Below are positions 15,403 through 56,882 of a stretch of DNA of 64,000 bases, piece after piece; the first letter of the stretch is position 1, and every line of letters starts with the position of its first letter. The stretch is taken from assembly GCA_046350855.1 (NCBI GenBank), contig JAXLZM010000005.1:9331-73330 (forward strand), given 5' to 3'. The DNA is from Candidatus Anderseniibacteriota bacterium. GTDB lineage: Bacteria > Patescibacteriota > JAUYIX01. The position numbers were made by a program, and so were the translations under genes. Under the pieces are notes generated by a model that did not search any database, had not been told where the DNA came from, and saw only the letters and a program-made list of their open reading frames with translations.

Positions 15403-16048
15403 GCCCAGCTACCAAAGGTGTTTATCTTGTGCTGCTCGTAACCATTTCAGATGTTAGTCGGCAGAGTCCCCTTTATCGGCATCCAGCTTCGGTGGCGGCC
15501 GTCTCCTGCTCACGCCCTGTTCTGGCTTCAACTCGGTGGATCGCCGGACGCGAGCCCTGGAATGCCGCCCGGCATTACCGGCTGATCAGCGCTTCGCCTT
15601 CGTAGCGACGGGACGACCGTGGCGAGATGGTGCCGATGGTCACGAGTACACCCGGCGGACGAGTGCGCCGGTGTATCGACGGTTCAAACGATGGGTGGAT
15701 TTAAGGCGAAATCGCTTTGCTCGTCGATCTCAGGAAAGAGCGTCGCGGCGACCGTATTCCCGGTGTACCTGGTCGCCGAGCTTCGTCCAGCGGCAAAGAG
15801 CCTACTGCACAGAAAGGCGTTATGCATTGGGTTTTTTTTTTTTTATTAGGGGGATCTGTCGCAGGGAGCCTGAGTCACGCGGACAGGCAAACACGCATAC
15901 TGTTTGCTCACGTGCCAGGTGCCACACATTACTTCCCGCGCGCCGAAAGAGCACTTGGCAAAATTGTTTGGATCTATTCCCGCCTTCGGATGTTTGGGCT
16001 GGGCTTGTGCACGGGATTGGATACCCTCCCGGGTCTGTTGCCGCGGTG

Positions 16049-29683: not shown

Positions 29684-30124
29684 ATGTCTGGGTATCCAAC
29701 CAACCTCGTGCGTCACGCACACTTTGCTTCCGTGGCAGGCTATTTAACGGAGGACAACTTTCCGGTGGTTCTGCCACTGGAAGAACATCCCGACTACCGT
29801 CTCATCAACCCGGGCGCCGTGTCTACTGCCGCGATCTTGGAGCAGATGCAGGCAGAACGGCAACGCGCGCCTTCGCTGTACGAGCTGATCACCTGGGCCG
29901 TCGAGCATCCCGAGGCTGGACTCAAGCAGTGGGTGATCGCTTTGGGTCAGTCTATCCCTGGCGAAAATAAGAATCGCGGCTACCCGTGCGCGCGACCCGA
30001 TCGGCGCGGCATGCGTGATCTGGCCTGCGCGTGGGAGCGTCCCATTGGCCGACCGTGGGGCGCGGAGGATCTGTTCTTGGTTGTGCAGGAGCCGCCTCCC
30101 GGATTCAAACTCACCTTTGCGTGA
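29684..30124 (+). CDS. Paralog of the DGR target protein (no TR-matching VR)
   Basis: RAPSLYELITWAVEHPEAGLKQWVIALGQS aligns with the target's RPATLYELLVWAAKNPLEGTQYWVVALEQY. Its C-terminal region has no DNA match to the TR. Confidence 0.55.
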   Translation: MSGYPTNLVRHAHFASVAGYLTEDNFPVVLPLEEHPDYRLINPGAVSTAAILEQMQAERQRAPSLYELITWAVEHPEAGLKQWVIALGQSIPGENKNRGYPCARPDRRGMRDLACAWERPIGRPWGAEDLFLVVQEPPPGFKLTFA

Positions 30125-30299
30125 GAGTTGTAGTGCTACTAGTGGGCTCGATCTCTGATCGAGCCCCTCTTTTTGTGCAAGTTGACAAAAGAGCCTTTTT
30201 AGTGTAAGGTGTGTGTTTGCTCTTTAACTGGTACGTCTAGAACCCGTGGCATGGTGCTGTGGGTTGTCGGACAAGCCAAGTACCAAGGAGAACACTCAA

Positions 30300-30971
30300 A
30301 TGGCAAAGGCCAAGACCGCAAAGAAGAAGTCGGAGACGGCTTCTGCGATCGGTGTGTACGCCAAGATCTGGATCGCGATCGAGGCAGCCGTGCTCGCCAA
30401 GGGCGGCACGTACAACGACCTTTACTCGCTCAGCGAGACCAAGGACGCCACCCTGATCAACAAGTTCGCGGAACTCGTGGTCACCTCCAAGAATGGCGCC
30501 AAGAAGGTTGCCGATAAGGTCGTCGACGTGATGGCCGGTTACCTCCAGCGCCTGACCGTTGCCTGCAACTTCTCGTACGTGTGGGACGGCATCACGGAGG
30601 CTCGCTTCCCGATGCCGACCAAGCCCGTGAGTGAGAAGCTCGAGTACGTGGTCTACTCCATCAAGCAGGCCATGAACCGCGCTGAAATCATCGCTGCCAT
30701 GGCTGCCGAGGGACTGCGGCCCGCCACCCTGTACGAACTGCTGGTCTGGGCTGCCAAGAACCCGCTCGAAGGCACTCAGTACTGGGTGGTTGCTCTTGAG
30801 CAGTACTTCACGGATTCCGGCGGCAGCCTCGACTTCGCCTACATCAACCCCTATGGCTACGGCAGGCGCGAGCTCGACTACGGCTGGATCAACCGCCTCA
30901 GCGATCGGTGGAGCGCCGACGGTCGTTTTCTCGCCGTCCGCAAGTCGAGCGACGAGCCCTTGGCCACTTAG
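30300..30971 (+). CDS. DGR target (variable) protein with C-terminal VR
   Basis: AAGGAG 8 nt upstream of the ATG at 30300. The C-terminal 144 nt equal the TR except at TR adenines. Confidence 0.8.
   Translation: MAKAKTAKKKSETASAIGVYAKIWIAIEAAVLAKGGTYNDLYSLSETKDATLINKFAELVVTSKNGAKKVADKVVDVMAGYLQRLTVACNFSYVWDGITEARFPMPTKPVSEKLEYVVYSIKQAMNRAEIIAAMAAEGLRPATLYELLVWAAKNPLEGTQYWVVALEQYFTDSGGSLDFAYINPYGYGRRELDYGWINRLSDRWSADGRFLAVRKSSDEPLAT
30804..30947 (+). repeat. DGR variable repeat (VR)
   Basis: 144-nt match to 31278..31421 with 21 differences, every one at a TR adenine. Confidence 0.85.
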
Positions 30972-31277
30972 TTCCTTGGAACTCATAGAGACCACCTGGT
31001 CTCTTGGTTCCCGCCCTCGGAAGACACATGTCTTCCGAGGGTATTTTTTATCTGCTACTATTTTTTGGGATCGCGACTAGTCAGGCTACAGCTTGACCAA
31101 TCAAAATCTCGGTTCATTCTAGGCCAGGATCCCGTCGGTCAAGACTTACGGGAGCGTGCTTGCAGTGAGCCAAATAAAACATGACTTGGTGTAGTTAGTT
31201 GGAGAGCTTGCAGCTCCAAACATAGATTCAGTCGGGAGATATTCAACCGACGGTGACACGGATGGCTTTCTACACAC

Positions 31278-31421
31278 AACTTCACGGATTCCGACGGCAA
31301 CCTCAACTTCGCCTACATCAACCCCAATGGCAACGGCAGGCGCAAGCTCAACTACAACTGGATCAACCACCTCAGCAATCAGTGGAACACCGACAATCGT
31401 TTTCTCGCCGTCCGCAAGAAA
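31278..31421 (+). repeat. DGR template repeat (TR)
   Basis: Invariant A-rich copy (AAC codons) of the VR. Lies between the target gene and avd/RT. Confidence 0.85.
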
Positions 31422-31432
31422 TGTTTTATCTA

Positions 31433-31852
31433 CTATGAGGGCCCGTAACCAAACGTTGCGGGCTTTTTAGTAGCCGATTTTTGCCATCCGCCCAGCATGC
31501 GTCCTACTTCAGCAAGCGGCGTACTGATATGTGCATATTTTTTGTGATCAATCAATTTGAGTTCCCACGCAATTTGTAAAAAGAATTTGAGTGTATCAAG
31601 TGTGCTGCTTGCTGCGCGTATAAGGTCTGCTTTACGCTTTGGGCTGGCAAAACAGGCCTGCAATAATCGAGTAATTAAATCTAAAAAAAGAGTCTCGATC
31701 CGTCCGCCAATTCCTTGGTGTGCTAGCCGTGGTAAGTTTGGCAGCGTTCCATACCAGGTTTTATATGCTAATGATGCACGTTGTAGAATTGGCGCATCTG
31801 GAGATGGCTGGGGGGGGGTATTCCAAGCACTATGAAACGGTTGCTGAACCAT
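31433..31852 (-). CDS. avd: Avd-like accessory variability determinant (four-helix-bundle protein)
   Basis: ASSTLDTLKFFLQIAWELKLIDHKKYAHISTPLAEVGRMLGGWQKS matches the four-helix-bundle / 23S-rRNA-IVS protein family used as DGR Avd. It is on the opposite strand to the TR and RT. Confidence 0.6.
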   Translation of the reverse strand: MVQQPFHSAWNTPPQPSPDAPILQRASLAYKTWYGTLPNLPRLAHQGIGGRIETLFLDLITRLLQACFASPKRKADLIRAASSTLDTLKFFLQIAWELKLIDHKKYAHISTPLAEVGRMLGGWQKSATKKPATFGYGPS

Positions 31853-32830
31853 ACGTTTGAGCAGGCTATATCACTTGAGAATTTACTGCTAGCTTGGCAG
31901 GAGTTTGCTACTGAAAAGCGTTATAAGCTGGACGTGGCCCATTTTAGTTTGAGGTTATTTGAAAATGTTCAGCAGTTGCAAAAGGAGCTTGAGGATGCCT
32001 CGTATCAGCACGGTGGGTATTATCGGTTCCGAGTGTGCGATCCAAAACCACGTGTAATTCATAAAGCAACTGTGCGCGATCGACTGTTACATCACGCATT
32101 GTATCGCGTGCTCTATCCATTTTTTGAGGATACGTTTTGCAGCGACGTGTTTTCTTCTCTCAAAAATAGGGGCGCTCATGCGGCACTCTCTCGTTTTGCG
32201 CATTTATACAATAGGGTAAGTCATAATAGTACGCGGACTTGCTGGGTCCTAAAATGCGATATCGCAAAGTTTTTTGACACAATTGATCACGAGATTCTTA
32301 AAAAACTACTCGAGGCTAGAGTCGAGGACAAAAAGCTACGTGTGCTCTTAAGCACGGTTATTGATAGTTTTTCGGTCCTACCTGGTAAAGGTCTACCGCT
32401 CGGCAACTTAACTTCACAATTGTTCTGCAATATTTATTTAAGTCACTTCGACAACTTTGTTAAACATTCGGTGCGTGCAAAGACCTATATTCGTTACGCA
32501 GACGATTTTGTAGTTATGTCGGATCGACGTGATTTTTTAGAGACACTTATTCCAAAGTTTGCAGATTTTCTGCAAAAAGAACTTAGACTCTCGCTGCATC
32601 CGCGCAAAGTGTCAATCAGCACAGTCGCATCAGGTGTCGACTTTTTGGGGTGGGTGCATTTTCCACATCACCGAGTCTTAAGGACCAAGACAAAAAATCG
32701 TCTACTGCGTCATGTCGCGATCTCTCCTCATACACCAACGATTGCATCATATCGAGGCTTACTAAAGCATGGTCATGCTAGACGCATTGAGCAAAAGCTT
32801 GCCTCGATTGAACTCTTTGGCAGGCTGTAA
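31832..32830 (+). CDS. DGR reverse transcriptase
   Basis: RT motifs VLKCDIAKFFDTIDH, LPLGNLTSQLFCNIYL (the DGR-specific SQ..N motif), YIRYADDFVV (YxDD) and GVDFLGW. Confidence 0.9.
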   Translation: MKRLLNHTFEQAISLENLLLAWQEFATEKRYKLDVAHFSLRLFENVQQLQKELEDASYQHGGYYRFRVCDPKPRVIHKATVRDRLLHHALYRVLYPFFEDTFCSDVFSSLKNRGAHAALSRFAHLYNRVSHNSTRTCWVLKCDIAKFFDTIDHEILKKLLEARVEDKKLRVLLSTVIDSFSVLPGKGLPLGNLTSQLFCNIYLSHFDNFVKHSVRAKTYIRYADDFVVMSDRRDFLETLIPKFADFLQKELRLSLHPRKVSISTVASGVDFLGWVHFPHHRVLRTKTKNRLLRHVAISPHTPTIASYRGLLKHGHARRIEQKLASIELFGRL

Positions 32831-55698: not shown

Positions 55699-55733
55699 GC
55701 TTGCATAAGGGGGGGGGTCTATATACTAGTTAT
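55699..55733 (+). promoter_or_regulatory. Putative promoter with a G9 homopolymer in the -35/-10 spacer; leaderless start
   Basis: TTGCAT, then a 15-nt spacer containing GGGGGGGGG, then TATACT, then 6 nt, then ATG at 55734. Confidence 0.35.
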
Positions 55734-56882
55734 ATGAAAAAATTACTTTCTAGCCTATTGTTCGCTGTCGTTACGACTGTCTTTTTTAACAACAGTAACC
55801 AAGCCCAAGCCGCCTTTAATGGCATCAAGCGCCTAGAAGGCGCAGATCGCTTTTTGACCGCTGTGGAGATTTCTAAGGAGGCATTTTCTGCGGACGGTTC
55901 TGCGGCCGTGGTCTATCTATACAACTCAGACAACCCAATAGATGCGTTATCTGCAGTTCCTCTGACTCAATTCGATAAAACCCAAGATCCAGCCTTTGGC
56001 GTTTCATACCAAGGCCCACTCTTGCCAGTAGAACATGGGACTACCATAACCACTGAAATTGCTGCAGAAATTAGTCGAGTTTCATCCCTGAGTGCTGGTA
56101 ATAGAGTAACAATTTTGGGAGGACCAAACGCGGTCTCTTCGATGGTTGAATCACAGTTAACCAGTCAAGGACACGTTGTTAATCGCATTGCTGGACTCAA
56201 TCGTTATGGTACGGCGGCCGAAATTGCATCTATGATTAAAAGTTTGGTTGCACCTAATGTTCCGGATATTTTTGTCGTCAACGGCGAATCCATTGCCGAT
56301 GCACTCGCCGTCTCGCCTCTCGCTGCTTCGTTAACATATACTACTGATCCTTCTTTCAATAACTATGGCGATGTAATCCTATTGACTTATAAAGATGCTG
56401 TTCCCAACGAGTCCAAGGTCTACATTAACAGCCAAAGCGGGGGCACCTTGACGATGGTCGGTGGCACGAGCGTCATTAGTAAGCCAGTTGCAGAGCAACT
56501 GGCCGAACGTCACTGGGGGGACCCAAGTAACTATTCCCGCTTTGATGGAAAAGATCGTTTCCACACTGCGCGGATAATCGGAGATAGATTTACCGATAGT
56601 GGTAGCTCCAATATGGCTTTTGGTGTTGGGCTCGCCAATGGACTCACAATGGCCGATGCACTACCCGCGGGCGTTTTGCTTGCGCAACAGTATATGCCTT
56701 TACTTCTAACCTCGGGCGAAAACATTAACTGTGATACCGCTCGTTATGTTGAGCGGTACGAATTACTTTTTGACCGCGGCTACGTGTTTGGCGGTTCTGC
56801 TGCAGTCTCGGTTACAGCTGAGGATCAGTTACAATCTCTTACGAACGGCGATACTAATGCCGCTAATCTCGGCTGTGTCTAA
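55734..56882 (+). CDS. Cell-wall-binding repeat (CW_binding_2-like) surface protein with signal peptide
   Basis: Three R..G.DR(F/Y).TA..I repeats (RLEGADRFLTAVEI, RIAGLNRYGTAAEI, RFDGKDRFHTARII). Signal peptide MKKLLSSLLFAVVTTVFF. Local GC is visibly lower than its surroundings. Confidence 0.65.
   Translation: MKKLLSSLLFAVVTTVFFNNSNQAQAAFNGIKRLEGADRFLTAVEISKEAFSADGSAAVVYLYNSDNPIDALSAVPLTQFDKTQDPAFGVSYQGPLLPVEHGTTITTEIAAEISRVSSLSAGNRVTILGGPNAVSSMVESQLTSQGHVVNRIAGLNRYGTAAEIASMIKSLVAPNVPDIFVVNGESIADALAVSPLAASLTYTTDPSFNNYGDVILLTYKDAVPNESKVYINSQSGGTLTMVGGTSVISKPVAEQLAERHWGDPSNYSRFDGKDRFHTARIIGDRFTDSGSSNMAFGVGLANGLTMADALPAGVLLAQQYMPLLLTSGENINCDTARYVERYELLFDRGYVFGGSAAVSVTAEDQLQSLTNGDTNAANLGCV

Follow-up and report, generated by a model that had tools for sequence, protein, structure and literature searches.

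Diversity-generating retroelements (DGRs) in a large group of uncultured bacteria carry a slippage-prone repeat at one exact site, the 5′ end of the avd gene, and the G9/C9 tract described here is one example of it. The repeat is conserved and site-specific, occurs as several types at the one site, is polymorphic in length within populations and, as read from the sequence, changes the frame of Avd. We consider it fairly probable that the repeat acts as a slipped-strand contingency switch on Avd translation and hence on DGR mutagenesis. The new part is the conserved tract at the avd 5′ end; the inverted orientation of avd is already known (architecture B3).

Results

A DGR with an inverted avd gene

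The tract lies in a stretch of 64 kb (64,000 nucleotides, the window) that contains the following DGR features.

30246-30971, + strand: DGR target gene, a listed ORF of 241 aa with the variable region at its 3′ end
30805-30944, + strand: variable region (VR) within the target gene, a 140-nt direct repeat of the template repeat with 89% identity
31013-31042, + strand: GC-rich hairpin of 13 bp followed by a T run, 3′ of the VR and target gene (terminator-like scan match)
31279-31418, + strand: template repeat (TR), from repeat comparison with the VR
31430-31473, + strand: stem-loop of ~19 bp followed by T5, −25.5 kcal/mol (RNA fold z-score −2.9)
31433-31852, − strand: avd, 139 aa with an ATG start, opposite in strand to TR and RT (PF22296 match)
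31760-31789, + strand: sigma-70-like promoter match TTTATA-18-TAGAAT (consensus scan), inside the avd 5′ coding region and 20 nt upstream of the tract
31810-31818, both strands: homopolymer, G9 on the RT strand and C9 on the avd strand; tracts of 8-12 nt at the homologous site in relatives
31824-31830, − strand: putative alternative avd starts, one in each remaining frame and each open into the tract
31832-32830, + strand: DGR reverse transcriptase (RT), 332 aa (PF00078, 88.7 bits)
31850-31852, − strand: avd ATG start, in frame with the core at C9; reverse complement of the RT His7 codon CAT

The locus is a genuine DGR, because VR and TR differ at 16 positions and 16 of 16 are TR adenines (alignment of 30805-30944 with 31279-31418). 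An independent contig, L165, differs from the window at 14 positions in 2927 nt, of which 12 lie in the VR and 2 elsewhere. The 12 VR differences fall within 30810-30922, 11 of them at TR adenines. The VR of the window was recently diversified, as in a DGR whose diversification is ongoing. Profile searches of the target-gene ORF yielded no match to a Pfam or NCBIfam family. The RT protein search returned 7840 relatives at E≤1e−60, mostly from Patescibacteria, and an exact protein look-up found 0 sequences identical to the RT of the window. We classed this RT as DGR type through its closest relatives, which are Patescibacteria RTs whose fetched loci carry avd adjoining the RT gene.

The original prediction had called the ORF at 31433-31852 Avd-like, and profile searches confirmed it as a member of the Avd family by Pfam (PF22296 bAvd: 49.5 bits against a cut-off of 40). 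The NCBIfam model NF033474 (DivGenRetAVD) matched residues 21-125 with 65.3 bits (E 5e−18), which is below the cut-off of 80 for this equivalog model. A PDB profile search with Avd matched only two entries, 4DWL and 8UB7, both of the Bordetella phage Avd, and as these matches were weak (E 0.07 and 0.3), we base family membership on Pfam. The same protein sequence occurs in a Candidatus Andersenbacteria MAG under the name 'four helix bundle protein'. Avd comprises a variable leader (residues 1-12), the tract-encoded T-P-P-Q and a conserved core from about residue 20; the N-terminal peptide predicted in this organism is, for example, MVQQPFHSAWNTPPQPSPDAPILQR.

The coordinates agree with the earlier placement of avd, inverted between TR and RT and overlapping the RT start by about 20 nt: the first 21 nt of avd overlap RT codons 1-7 (31832-31852). 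This orientation had been considered unusual, a view that we can no longer uphold. With TR, reverse-strand avd, RT and no further accessory gene, the locus fits architecture B3, TR-(avd)-RT, which makes up 90% of the CPR DGR set in the survey by Wu et al. (2018, NAR 46:11, PMC5758913). The same layout was present in every fetched locus of a CPR relative with an Avd match.

The hairpin at 31013-31042 could be a terminator, a DGR target-site hairpin or both. The stem-loop at 31430-31473 starts 12 nt past the TR and overlaps the avd stop codon; it is a candidate for the Avd-binding stem-loop of the DGR RNA, for a terminator common to the TR transcript and avd, or for both. Of 278 DGRs examined by Handa et al. 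(bioRxiv 10.1101/2023.10.23.563531), 207 had a putative Avd-binding stem-loop immediately 3′ of the TR. The promoter match at 31760-31789 is a possible RT promoter and would put the G run in the RT 5′ UTR, but the regional count of sigma-70 consensus matches was not above that of shuffles, making promoter assignments weak. We rejected the G run as a part of the DGR RNA spacer, as it lies ~390 nt beyond the TR, whereas known functional spacer elements are within ~100 nt.

A homopolymer tract conserved at the 5′ end of avd

The original prediction had located a G9 run inside the 5′ coding region of avd. Both the run and its location stood, with coordinates corrected by one position (31810-31818 instead of 31809-31817), and the distance to the RT ATG (31832) is 13 nt rather than the 15 nt given before. 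In the avd direction the codons at the tract are ACC CCC CCC CAG (T-P-P-Q), with C9 at avd codons 12-15.

Taken by itself, the G9 run of the window is not significant. At 55% GC, 64 kb should contain ~0.8 G/C runs of at least 9 nt by chance, and the observed count of G8 matches was reached by 22 of 100 shuffles. Another G9 of the window lies at 55709-55717. The earlier caution that a G9 may occur by chance in GC-rich DNA holds for the window as a whole. The local DNA is not GC-rich (~45% GC), and the number of runs expected in the 1.4-kb avd-RT core is 0.003. Chance is ruled out by the relatives, because nearly all of them carry the tract at the corresponding place, and nowhere else in their loci. 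We also rejected a two-colour Illumina poly-G artefact: the run is mid-contig, its flanks are conserved, and it is present in dozens of independent assemblies.

Across 29 CPR-type RT loci (161,878 nt) we counted 20 G/C runs of at least 8 nt. All 20 were located at most 110 nt upstream of the RT match, with no such run elsewhere in these loci. The 130 non-CPR DGR RT loci (502,637 nt) contained 2 such runs, neither of them near the RT. Tracts at the homologous site in CPR relatives were 8-12 nt long. As CPR lineages share only ~50% RT identity, a pure homopolymer would be lost without selection. No tract is present in contigs L204-L207 (RT P0138), whose layout differs; L089 lost its tract and kept a leader of the same kind, with its ATG in frame as read from the sequence.

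A comparison of tract length in related genomes, proposed with the original prediction, showed that it is not uniform. The window strain is represented by only two sequences, the window and L165, both with G9 and with Avd in frame, and the nearest relatives have G11 (L166) and G10 (L001). Length also varied within populations that share an identical RT protein.

Other repeat units at the tract site

In L021 the tract site is occupied by a perfect (CTGG)10.2 repeat, (CCAG)10 on the avd strand, which is in frame in an Avd of 149 aa. Avd relatives of L021 have the repeat peptides SQPASQPA, TNQPTNQ, NQSINQSI, THTHT, SHQPSAI (two copies), TINHQPS (two copies) and SNQQSAI (three or four copies) at this site. 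Each peptide fits a single unit size: 4 nt for SQPASQPA, TNQPTNQ and NQSINQSI, 2 nt for THTHT and 7 nt for SHQPSAI, TINHQPS and SNQQSAI. Only 8.8e−6 of all 7-aa peptides can be encoded by a 7-nt unit. The repeat units are 1, 2, 4 and 7 nt long, none a multiple of 3; among the non-homopolymers (CTGG)n of L021 was observed in DNA, and the 2-, 7- and other 4-nt units were deduced from proteins. A scan of viral contigs for (AGCAATC)3 hit seven unrelated contigs, none with Avd.

Length polymorphism within populations

Ten contigs from ten samples encode an identical RT protein (P0026). Their tract lengths, which were taken from assemblies so that differences could include homopolymer consensus errors, were G10 in seven and G9 in three. 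C9 yields a full-length Avd from the ATG, and C10 leads to a stop after 34 aa. Both lengths were found with both alleles of a linked SNP, an indirect hint that switching may be reversible. Among the contigs of a second identical RT protein (P0114), read in the same way from assemblies, we found G10 three times, G11 twice and G12 once. C12 alone is in frame in this population; C10 and C11 are without any in-frame start. Over 3.9 kb in seven P0114 contigs, the tract and the VR were the only variable sites.

The tract was uniform in 13 contigs of four other populations, which argues against a high assembly error rate at tracts. We left out P0049 (L177-L186), because its RT gene call spans the tract and an exact protein match therefore fixes one length. 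In single Avd clusters at 90% identity, the leader switches between two reading frames of one DNA sequence; the repeats differ by 3 nt (homopolymer) or by 3 units. L016 (C8) and its sister lineage L018 (C9) have the same flanks and the same ATG at −16, which is in frame only with C9. The site has two of the properties of SSR contingency loci: a unit that is not a multiple of 3 in the 5′ coding region and, as shown in related populations, length polymorphism.

Start codons and reading frame

Slippage at the tract had been expected to frameshift avd, and the length differences that we observed do move the avd frame relative to upstream starts. In the window, starts open into the tract in all three frames: the ATG is in frame at C9, a GTG (31828-31830) at C10 and a TTG (31824-31826) at C8 or C11. 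The counterpart of the TTG is the in-frame start in L001 and L166. With starts in three frames, a change in tract length may shift the level of Avd in this organism instead of abolishing it. The on/off switch suggested for this site is partly supported, in that the varying lengths change the frame; it may not be a simple one in the window.

The stretch from tract to conserved core is free of in-frame ATG, GTG and TTG codons in L001, L010, L166, the P0114 population and the window, so that the core would need an upstream start in these sequences. The upstream ATG lies antisense to a His codon that is conserved in the N-terminal part of the RT; being partly forced by this codon, it is not independent evidence for a start. 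Where the Avd frame of a lineage consensus is known, an in-frame upstream start is present in 10 and missing from 16, and 2 lineages are polymorphic. The in-frame share of about one-third equals the random-frame expectation, and an excess might be expected if an upstream start were required. In ten of these 16 'off' lineages, a TTG, GTG or ATG that could serve as a start is in frame at most ~35 nt downstream of the tract.

The original prediction had also suggested that the tract may alter RT translation initiation. We found no evidence for this, and (CTGG)10 at the site in L021 argues against a G-specific role for the RT.

Discussion

We propose that selection keeps an SSR at the avd 5′ end in the CPR/Patescibacteria lineage of TR-(avd)-RT DGRs. 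Translation of avd would begin upstream of the repeat, in the window at the ATG at 31852, within the overlap with the RT start of the opposite strand. It would run through a short leader that is not conserved and then through the repeat before entering the conserved Avd core. Slipped-strand mispairing at replication would alter the repeat by at least one unit, and because units of 1, 2, 4 and 7 nt are not multiples of three, the core would be shifted into or out of frame with the starts. In the Bordetella phage DGR, Avd and RT are both required for cDNA synthesis (Handa et al. 2018, PMC6182149; Handa et al. 2024 preprint). If the RT studied here likewise needs Avd, the repeat would be a heritable, reversible switch on mutagenic retrohoming, or a level control where other frames also carry start codons. 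A lineage could fix a useful variant of its target protein and restart diversification later. We infer that the upstream codons are the real avd starts; out-of-frame tract lengths would then abolish Avd, and the frame of the tract would control DGR activity. The window is in the in-frame state (C9 with the ATG), and its VR was recently diversified.

Transcriptional slippage could make the genomic frame irrelevant. RNA polymerase would stutter on C8-C12, and a fixed in-frame minority of the mRNA would provide a low, constant dose of Avd. This would agree with an in-frame share of about one-third, as with an unconstrained genomic frame, and would explain the intact Avd core in L016, L087 and L194, all of which lack any in-frame start. 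Slippage was reportedly described by Baranov and co-workers in 2005 for A/T runs of a length range that includes tracts of at least 8 nt, and dnaX and IS elements are known cases. However, 2-, 4- and 7-nt repeats occupy the tract site, and we know of no polymerase stuttering on such units. Moreover, tract length is polymorphic in DNA, and alleles within clusters differ by exactly three units or 3 nt, which points to selection on the DNA frame. We consider this mechanism unlikely. A programmed transcriptional slippage site was rejected, as the genomic length varies, many genomes are in frame and non-homopolymers occur at the site; some slippage in RNA may nevertheless take place.

It is quite improbable, in our estimation, that avd starts downstream of the repeat, which would then lie in an untranslated or promoter region shared by the 5′ ends of the divergent avd and RT genes, its length tuning transcription or translation instead of frame. 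Promoter spacing, a pyrimidine-rich avd leader and a G-rich Shine-Dalgarno-like element for the RT are conceivable routes. In ~11 lineages TA follows the G run and the RT ATG lies at a near-constant 13 nt (range 11-17), several of these lineages having no other Shine-Dalgarno-like sequence; in other lineages, however, the distance from tract to RT ATG is 23 to 56 nt, and (CTGG)10 and other units in place of the G run rule out a G-specific element. The window, L001, L002 and L005 each have a promoter-like −10 element 20-30 nt upstream of the tract. The ten 'off' lineages with in-frame start codons after the tract and an in-frame fraction not above chance would also fit a downstream start. The five cases named above (the window, L001, L166, L010 and P0114) contradict it by having no in-frame start between tract and core, and most downstream starts would drop the conserved [LIV]-P-[LIV]-[LIV] directly after the repeat. 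The lack of 3- or 6-nt units would be left unexplained if frame were irrelevant.

Very improbable is the explanation that the tract is a protein feature (polyproline or a flexible linker at the Avd N-terminus) or a chance run, with length differences due to assembly errors. A C run encodes proline in any frame, PPP occurs in many Avd N-termini, and one G9 per 64 kb at 55% GC is statistically ordinary. Against this, pure CCC codons are maintained despite ~50% RT identity between lineages, several lineages have in-frame stop codons 3-14 nt upstream of the tract, and unrelated repeat peptides replace it, with units that are never a multiple of 3. The 162 kb of the same loci are free of other G/C runs of at least 8 nt, and the uniformity of 13 contigs in four populations stands against variation in two populations. 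The distribution of runs in the loci and the unit sizes of the repeat peptides largely refute both chance and polyproline as a selected feature. The slipped-strand switch on Avd translation is the reading that we retain.

DGRs of CPR and DPANN were reportedly described by Paul and colleagues in Nature Microbiology in 2017. The B3 DGRs surveyed by Wu et al. (2018) resemble the locus studied here in having a target gene with a 3′ VR, TR, reverse avd and RT, in occurring in Patescibacteria and in their adenine-specific TR/VR differences. The part of that survey cited here mentions no repeat tract in avd, and the conserved SSR at the avd 5′ end is an added feature. In a literature search, we found no link of DGRs or avd to homopolymers, SSRs, slipped-strand mispairing or phase variation of the element, although a prior description may exist.

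The DGR of Bordetella phage BPP-1 (avd-TR-brt; Avd structure 4DWL, RT-Avd-RNA complex 8UB7) has the same families of parts, with a four-helix-bundle Avd, a DGR RT and TR/VR. A stem-loop follows directly after the TR in the window, comparable with the Avd-binding stem-loop of the phage DGR RNA. In contrast, avd of BPP-1 is co-oriented, lies upstream of the TR and has no homopolymer, whereas avd of the window is antisense to the TR-RT strand and starts with an SSR. In BPP-1, part of the avd coding RNA is also functional in the DGR RNA. The two Avd proteins resemble each other only weakly in sequence (profile search E 0.07-0.3).

In Neisseria, Haemophilus, Campylobacter and Helicobacter, contingency loci carry poly-G/C tracts or tetranucleotide repeats, for example (CAAT)n, close to the 5′ ends of ORFs. 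As in avd, these repeats come soon after the start codon, their units are not divisible by three, and G/C runs are 8-12 nt long. Near-identical strains are likewise polymorphic, on and off frames alternate, and various repeat types occur at one site in related genes. The classical loci, however, control surface structures, restriction-modification and receptors in host-associated pathogens, whereas the gene controlled here would be a hypermutation accessory factor in free-living or episymbiotic uncultured bacteria. A mutator switch in mismatch repair is known from Salmonella and E. coli, where a 6-bp tandem repeat in mutL reversibly toggles mutation supply. The mutL switch affects the genome-wide mutation rate through an in-frame change in copy number; the avd switch would gate a single variable region by frameshift.

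To our knowledge, CPR/Patescibacteria are the largest known reservoir of DGRs, and they are not genetically tractable. Gene callers shorten or miss avd in many of these genomes owing to the tract, and DGR surveys may thus undercount intact Avd genes. Unchecked diversification of a working protein is costly. A conserved slippage-prone repeat in avd would provide a specific regulatory mechanism visible in the sequence itself. Metagenomic reads would show the setting of such a switch, for comparison with VR heterogeneity in each sample, which makes the proposal testable with existing time series. We regard it as an evenly balanced possibility that the system is a two-tier evolvability device, in which an SSR, conserved over much of the DGR radiation of Patescibacteria and rebuilt from different units in different lineages, would reversibly switch Avd and thereby gate the entire targeted hypermutation, with populations always mixing 'diversifying' and 'locked' cells. 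If this is true, one localized hypermutation mechanism would govern another.

Architecture of the DGR

The 30246-32830 region, in a Candidatus Andersenbacteria (Patescibacteria/CPR) MAG contig, is a complete DGR with the following parts.

30246-30971, target ORF, which holds the VR
30805-30944, VR, inside the target ORF
31279-31418, TR, from the comparison of TR with VR
31430-31473, strongly folding stem-loop followed by T5, directly after the TR and overlapping the avd stop codon
31433-31852, minus strand (opposite to RT), avd, between TR and RT (PF22296, NF033474)
31832-32830, RT (PF00078)

The repeat alignment placed all 16 TR/VR mismatches at template adenines. The original prediction of an Avd-like ORF was borne out by PF22296 (bAvd; 49.5 bits, cut-off 40), which makes the gene a Pfam-level member of the Avd family; NF033474 gave 65 bits (E 5e-18), under that model's cut-off of 80. 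The 139-aa product is 100% identical to a Candidatus Andersenbacteria protein named 'four helix bundle protein' by NCBI, and a PDB profile search with it returned only the Bordetella phage Avd entries 4DWL and 8UB7, as weak matches. For most Avd-containing DGRs, Handa et al. (bioRxiv 10.1101/2023.10.23.563531) describe an Avd-binding stem-loop just 3' of the TR, and the stem-loop here fits this description; instead or in addition, it could act as the TR transcript terminator.

Inversion of avd had been presented as an oddity, but it is a known arrangement: the element belongs to architecture B3, TR-(avd)-RT, which makes up 90% of the CPR set of Wu et al. 2018 (PMC5758913). In every CPR relative with a detectable Avd, avd lay directly upstream of RT on the opposite strand, and in the few non-CPR matches with Avd it was co-oriented with RT.

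Some further features were seen around the element. Immediately before the target gene, a 146-aa ORF (29684-30124) is a paralogue of the target C-terminal domain (31% identity, E 3e-15), including the part corresponding to the VR; as nothing in it matches the TR, it is apparently a copy that is not diversified. A 15-nt direct repeat lies at 31043-31057 (ATTTTTTATCTGCTA), after the post-VR hairpin, and at 31421-31435 (ATGTTTTATCTACTA), after the TR end, so that the VR and TR sides share sequence again past an insertion of ~100 nt on the VR side. The avd-RT core (31400-32800) is lower in GC (39-47%) than the window (~55%) and the flanking genes (55-62%), as would fit a cassette acquired horizontally.

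The G tract and its surroundings

The predicted nine-G run is present at 31810-31818, one base to the right of its first placement, and ends 13 nt rather than 15 nt before the RT ATG at 31832. On the avd strand it reads ACC CCC CCC CAG. With its ATG at 31852, avd extends over the first seven codons of RT (21 nt), in agreement with the ~20 nt expected. About 0.8 G/C runs of at least 9 are expected by chance in 64 kb, so that a single G9, judged within the window alone, is not remarkable; this caution was justified, but not its premise of GC-rich DNA, as the local DNA has 45% GC. The window has no G or C run of length 7 or 8 and only two of length 9.

The second G9 (55709-55717), the only other G/C run of at least 7, sits 16 nt before the ATG (55734) of a 382-aa ORF ending at 56882, whose N-terminus is signal-peptide-like (MKKLLSSLLFAVVTTVFF...). 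This may be another phase-variable locus of the genome, with a secreted or surface protein under its control. The longest homopolymer is T13 at 15832-15844, with GGG before and ATTAGGGGG after it.

Read on the RT strand, the avd ATG (31850-31852) is the CAT codon of RT His7, the conserved His of the RT N-terminal motif H-x-[FY]-E, and the Avd leader peptide (e.g. MVQQPFH) is the antisense of the first RT codons. Many lineages have an ATG 34-40 nt before the tract because it is the antisense of this His codon. In the window, a start codon is open into the tract in all three frames (ATG for C9, GTG for C10, TTG for C8/C11), and after a length change Avd may therefore still be made, from a weak start in place of a strong one. 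Further into the gene, the antisense of the conserved Avd I-L-Q codons, at 31782-31789 in the window and at the equivalent sites of the relatives' loci L001, L002 and L005 (TGTAGAAT / TGTAAAAT / TGTATAAT), resembles, on the RT strand, an extended -10 element located 20-30 nt before the tract. Judging by this match, the Avd N-terminal motif may double as an RT promoter.

Conservation and replacement of the repeat

Relatives were gathered by exact protein look-ups, a one-genome-per-species scan, a metagenome scan and protein searches. In 29 CPR-type RT loci (161,878 nt) we found 20 G/C runs of at least 8, every one of them in the 110 nt that precede the RT match; the 130 non-CPR DGR RT loci (502,637 nt) held two such runs, neither near RT. 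The tract is thus a conserved, site-specific feature. The RTs carrying it are only ~50% identical to that of the window, and at this distance neutral descent cannot account for an unbroken homopolymer at a fixed position. As anticipated, its length was not uniform, with 8, 9, 10, 11 and 12 represented across lineages and variation within two populations.

The Saccharibacteria locus L021 is without a G run and has a perfect (CTGG)x10.2 at the homologous point; the repeat lies within the 5' end of the gene for a 149-aa in-frame Avd and is translated as PASQPASQPASQP. A protein search with this Avd yielded 1380 relatives, in which a leader of the type MLENNFGH is followed by a repeat and the conserved core motif ILPVL..K.K..Y..W. 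The repeats at this junction were PPP or PPPP, SQPASQPA, TNQPTNQ, NQSINQSI, THTHT, SHQPSAI x2, TINHQPS x2 and SNQQSAI x3 or x4. Each repeat peptide allows one possible short DNA unit (CCAG/AGCC, ACCA, AATC, AC, AGCCATC, ACCATCA, AGCAATC), which gives deduced unit sizes of 1, 2, 4 and 7, never 3 or 6; for the non-homopolymer repeats the DNA was seen for L021 and the other units were derived from proteins. Only 8.8e-6 of all 7-residue peptides can be encoded by a 7-nt unit read in three frames. What is conserved is the site, not its sequence, and frame-shifting repeats just after the start, rebuilt from unrelated units in related genes, are the signature of a contingency locus. Neither a protein linker nor a sequence-specific nucleic-acid element would be expected to show this pattern.

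Length polymorphism and reading frame

We call an allele in frame if an upstream start codon is in register with the conserved Avd core through the tract. Populations were near-identical contigs from different samples, found by exact RT protein (exact Avd for P0003).

Table. Tract length within populations, named by query protein
P0026: 10 contigs; G10 x7, G9 x3; C9 gives full-length Avd from ATG (MSQLNFHNDNQLKPPPAGNLLIINKLVSAYKLW...), C10 a stop after 34 codons
P0114: 7 contigs; G10 x3, G11 x2, G12 x1, one contig broken inside the tract; only C12 frames the ATG at -16
P0003 (identical Avd): 3 contigs; C9; uniform, in frame
P0028: 4 contigs; G9; uniform, out of frame
P0120: 3 contigs; G11; uniform, out of frame
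P0083: 3 contigs; G9; uniform, in frame

Since four populations (13 contigs) each showed a single length, assembly errors at such tracts are unlikely to be frequent. Both P0026 lengths occurred on each allele of a linked A/G SNP. Across 3.9 kb of P0114, only the tract and seven VR positions varied, six of the latter at TR adenines, and for C10 and C11 no start codon on either side of the tract is in frame. L016 (C8) and L018 (C9), two sister lineages, have the ATG at -16 and flanks in common, and only C9 is in frame. Within single 90%-identity Avd clusters, the leader alternates between two reading frames of the same DNA, and the repeats are 3 nt (homopolymer) or three units apart in length; one cluster has MNELDAGHIIEASPPPRLL, MRAISLKRPPPRLL and MRAISLKRPPPPRLL, and a second has MLKNNFGHKDNTSQPASQPGK, MLKNNFGHKDNTSQPGK and MGIKIAPASQPASQPGK.

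In P0114, the VR of the only in-frame contig (L188, G12) is unlike the VR common to two G10 contigs; in L187-L189 the VR differences lie at TR-adenine positions (539-571) and the tract at 1475, and with one in-frame contig no correlation is claimed. The P0026 contigs (L167-L176; L167 coordinates) have a 71-nt indel between target gene and avd at about position 936, present in four of the ten, and a group of linked substitutions (194-228, before the target gene) that resembles a hairpin in two alternative forms. In P0114, contig L191 breaks exactly at the tract (its position 1). The avd gene was uncalled in L168-L173 and L175, including the in-frame C9 contigs L172, L173 and L175, and many database Avd proteins (P0176, P0180 and others) were called at 103-124 aa, with the N-terminus cut off; intact avd genes of this clade are therefore under-reported by standard annotation.

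The window and L165, an independent Logan contig with a 99% identical RT, both have G9 and an in-frame ATG at -34. Among more distant relatives, L166 (RT 82% identical) has G11 and L001 (66%) C10 plus a 1-nt indel downstream, each with an in-frame TTG at -8. Window and L165 differed at 14 of 2927 nt, without indels; 12 differences were in the VR and 11 of these at TR adenines. This DGR has therefore been active in the recent past, and its avd is in frame.

Interpretation of the repeat

The conserved, replaced and polymorphic repeat and its effects on frame are most likely best explained by a slipped-strand frame switch on avd that would gate DGR mutagenesis. Three rival explanations are alive: transcriptional slippage, which would make the genomic frame irrelevant, a location of the repeat in a shared untranslated or promoter region, or a secondary role of the G run for RT. 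Among lineages with a known Avd frame, ten had an in-frame upstream start, 16 had none (nine need one C fewer, seven one more) and two were polymorphic, an in-frame share no better than random, as each rival would allow. Likewise in their favour, the upstream ATG is dictated in part by the RT codons of the opposite strand, and ten of the 16 off lineages have a possible in-frame start shortly downstream of the tract. A role for RT gains further from the near-constant 13 nt between tract and RT ATG in ~11 lineages. However, non-homopolymer repeats at the site, in-frame alleles differing by three units and lineages without any other possible start make all three less likely.

Under the frame switch, translation of avd would start upstream of the repeat, within the antisense of the first RT codons, and the ribosome would pass an unconserved leader and the repeat into the core, which opens with [LIV]-P-[LIV]-[LIV]. 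Slipped-strand mispairing would alter the repeat and move the core relative to the start codons, with loss of Avd predicted in off frames.

Outside the principal paper on CPR DGRs (Paul et al. 2017), our literature search found no description of such a repeat in DGRs. In its behaviour the avd repeat resembles the contingency repeats (poly-G and tetranucleotide) of Neisseria, Haemophilus and Campylobacter, but here the controlled gene would be an accessory factor of a hypermutation system. Since cDNA synthesis in the phage system that has been studied (PMC6182149) depends on Avd as well as RT, the repeat would gate mutagenic retrohoming, heritably and reversibly.
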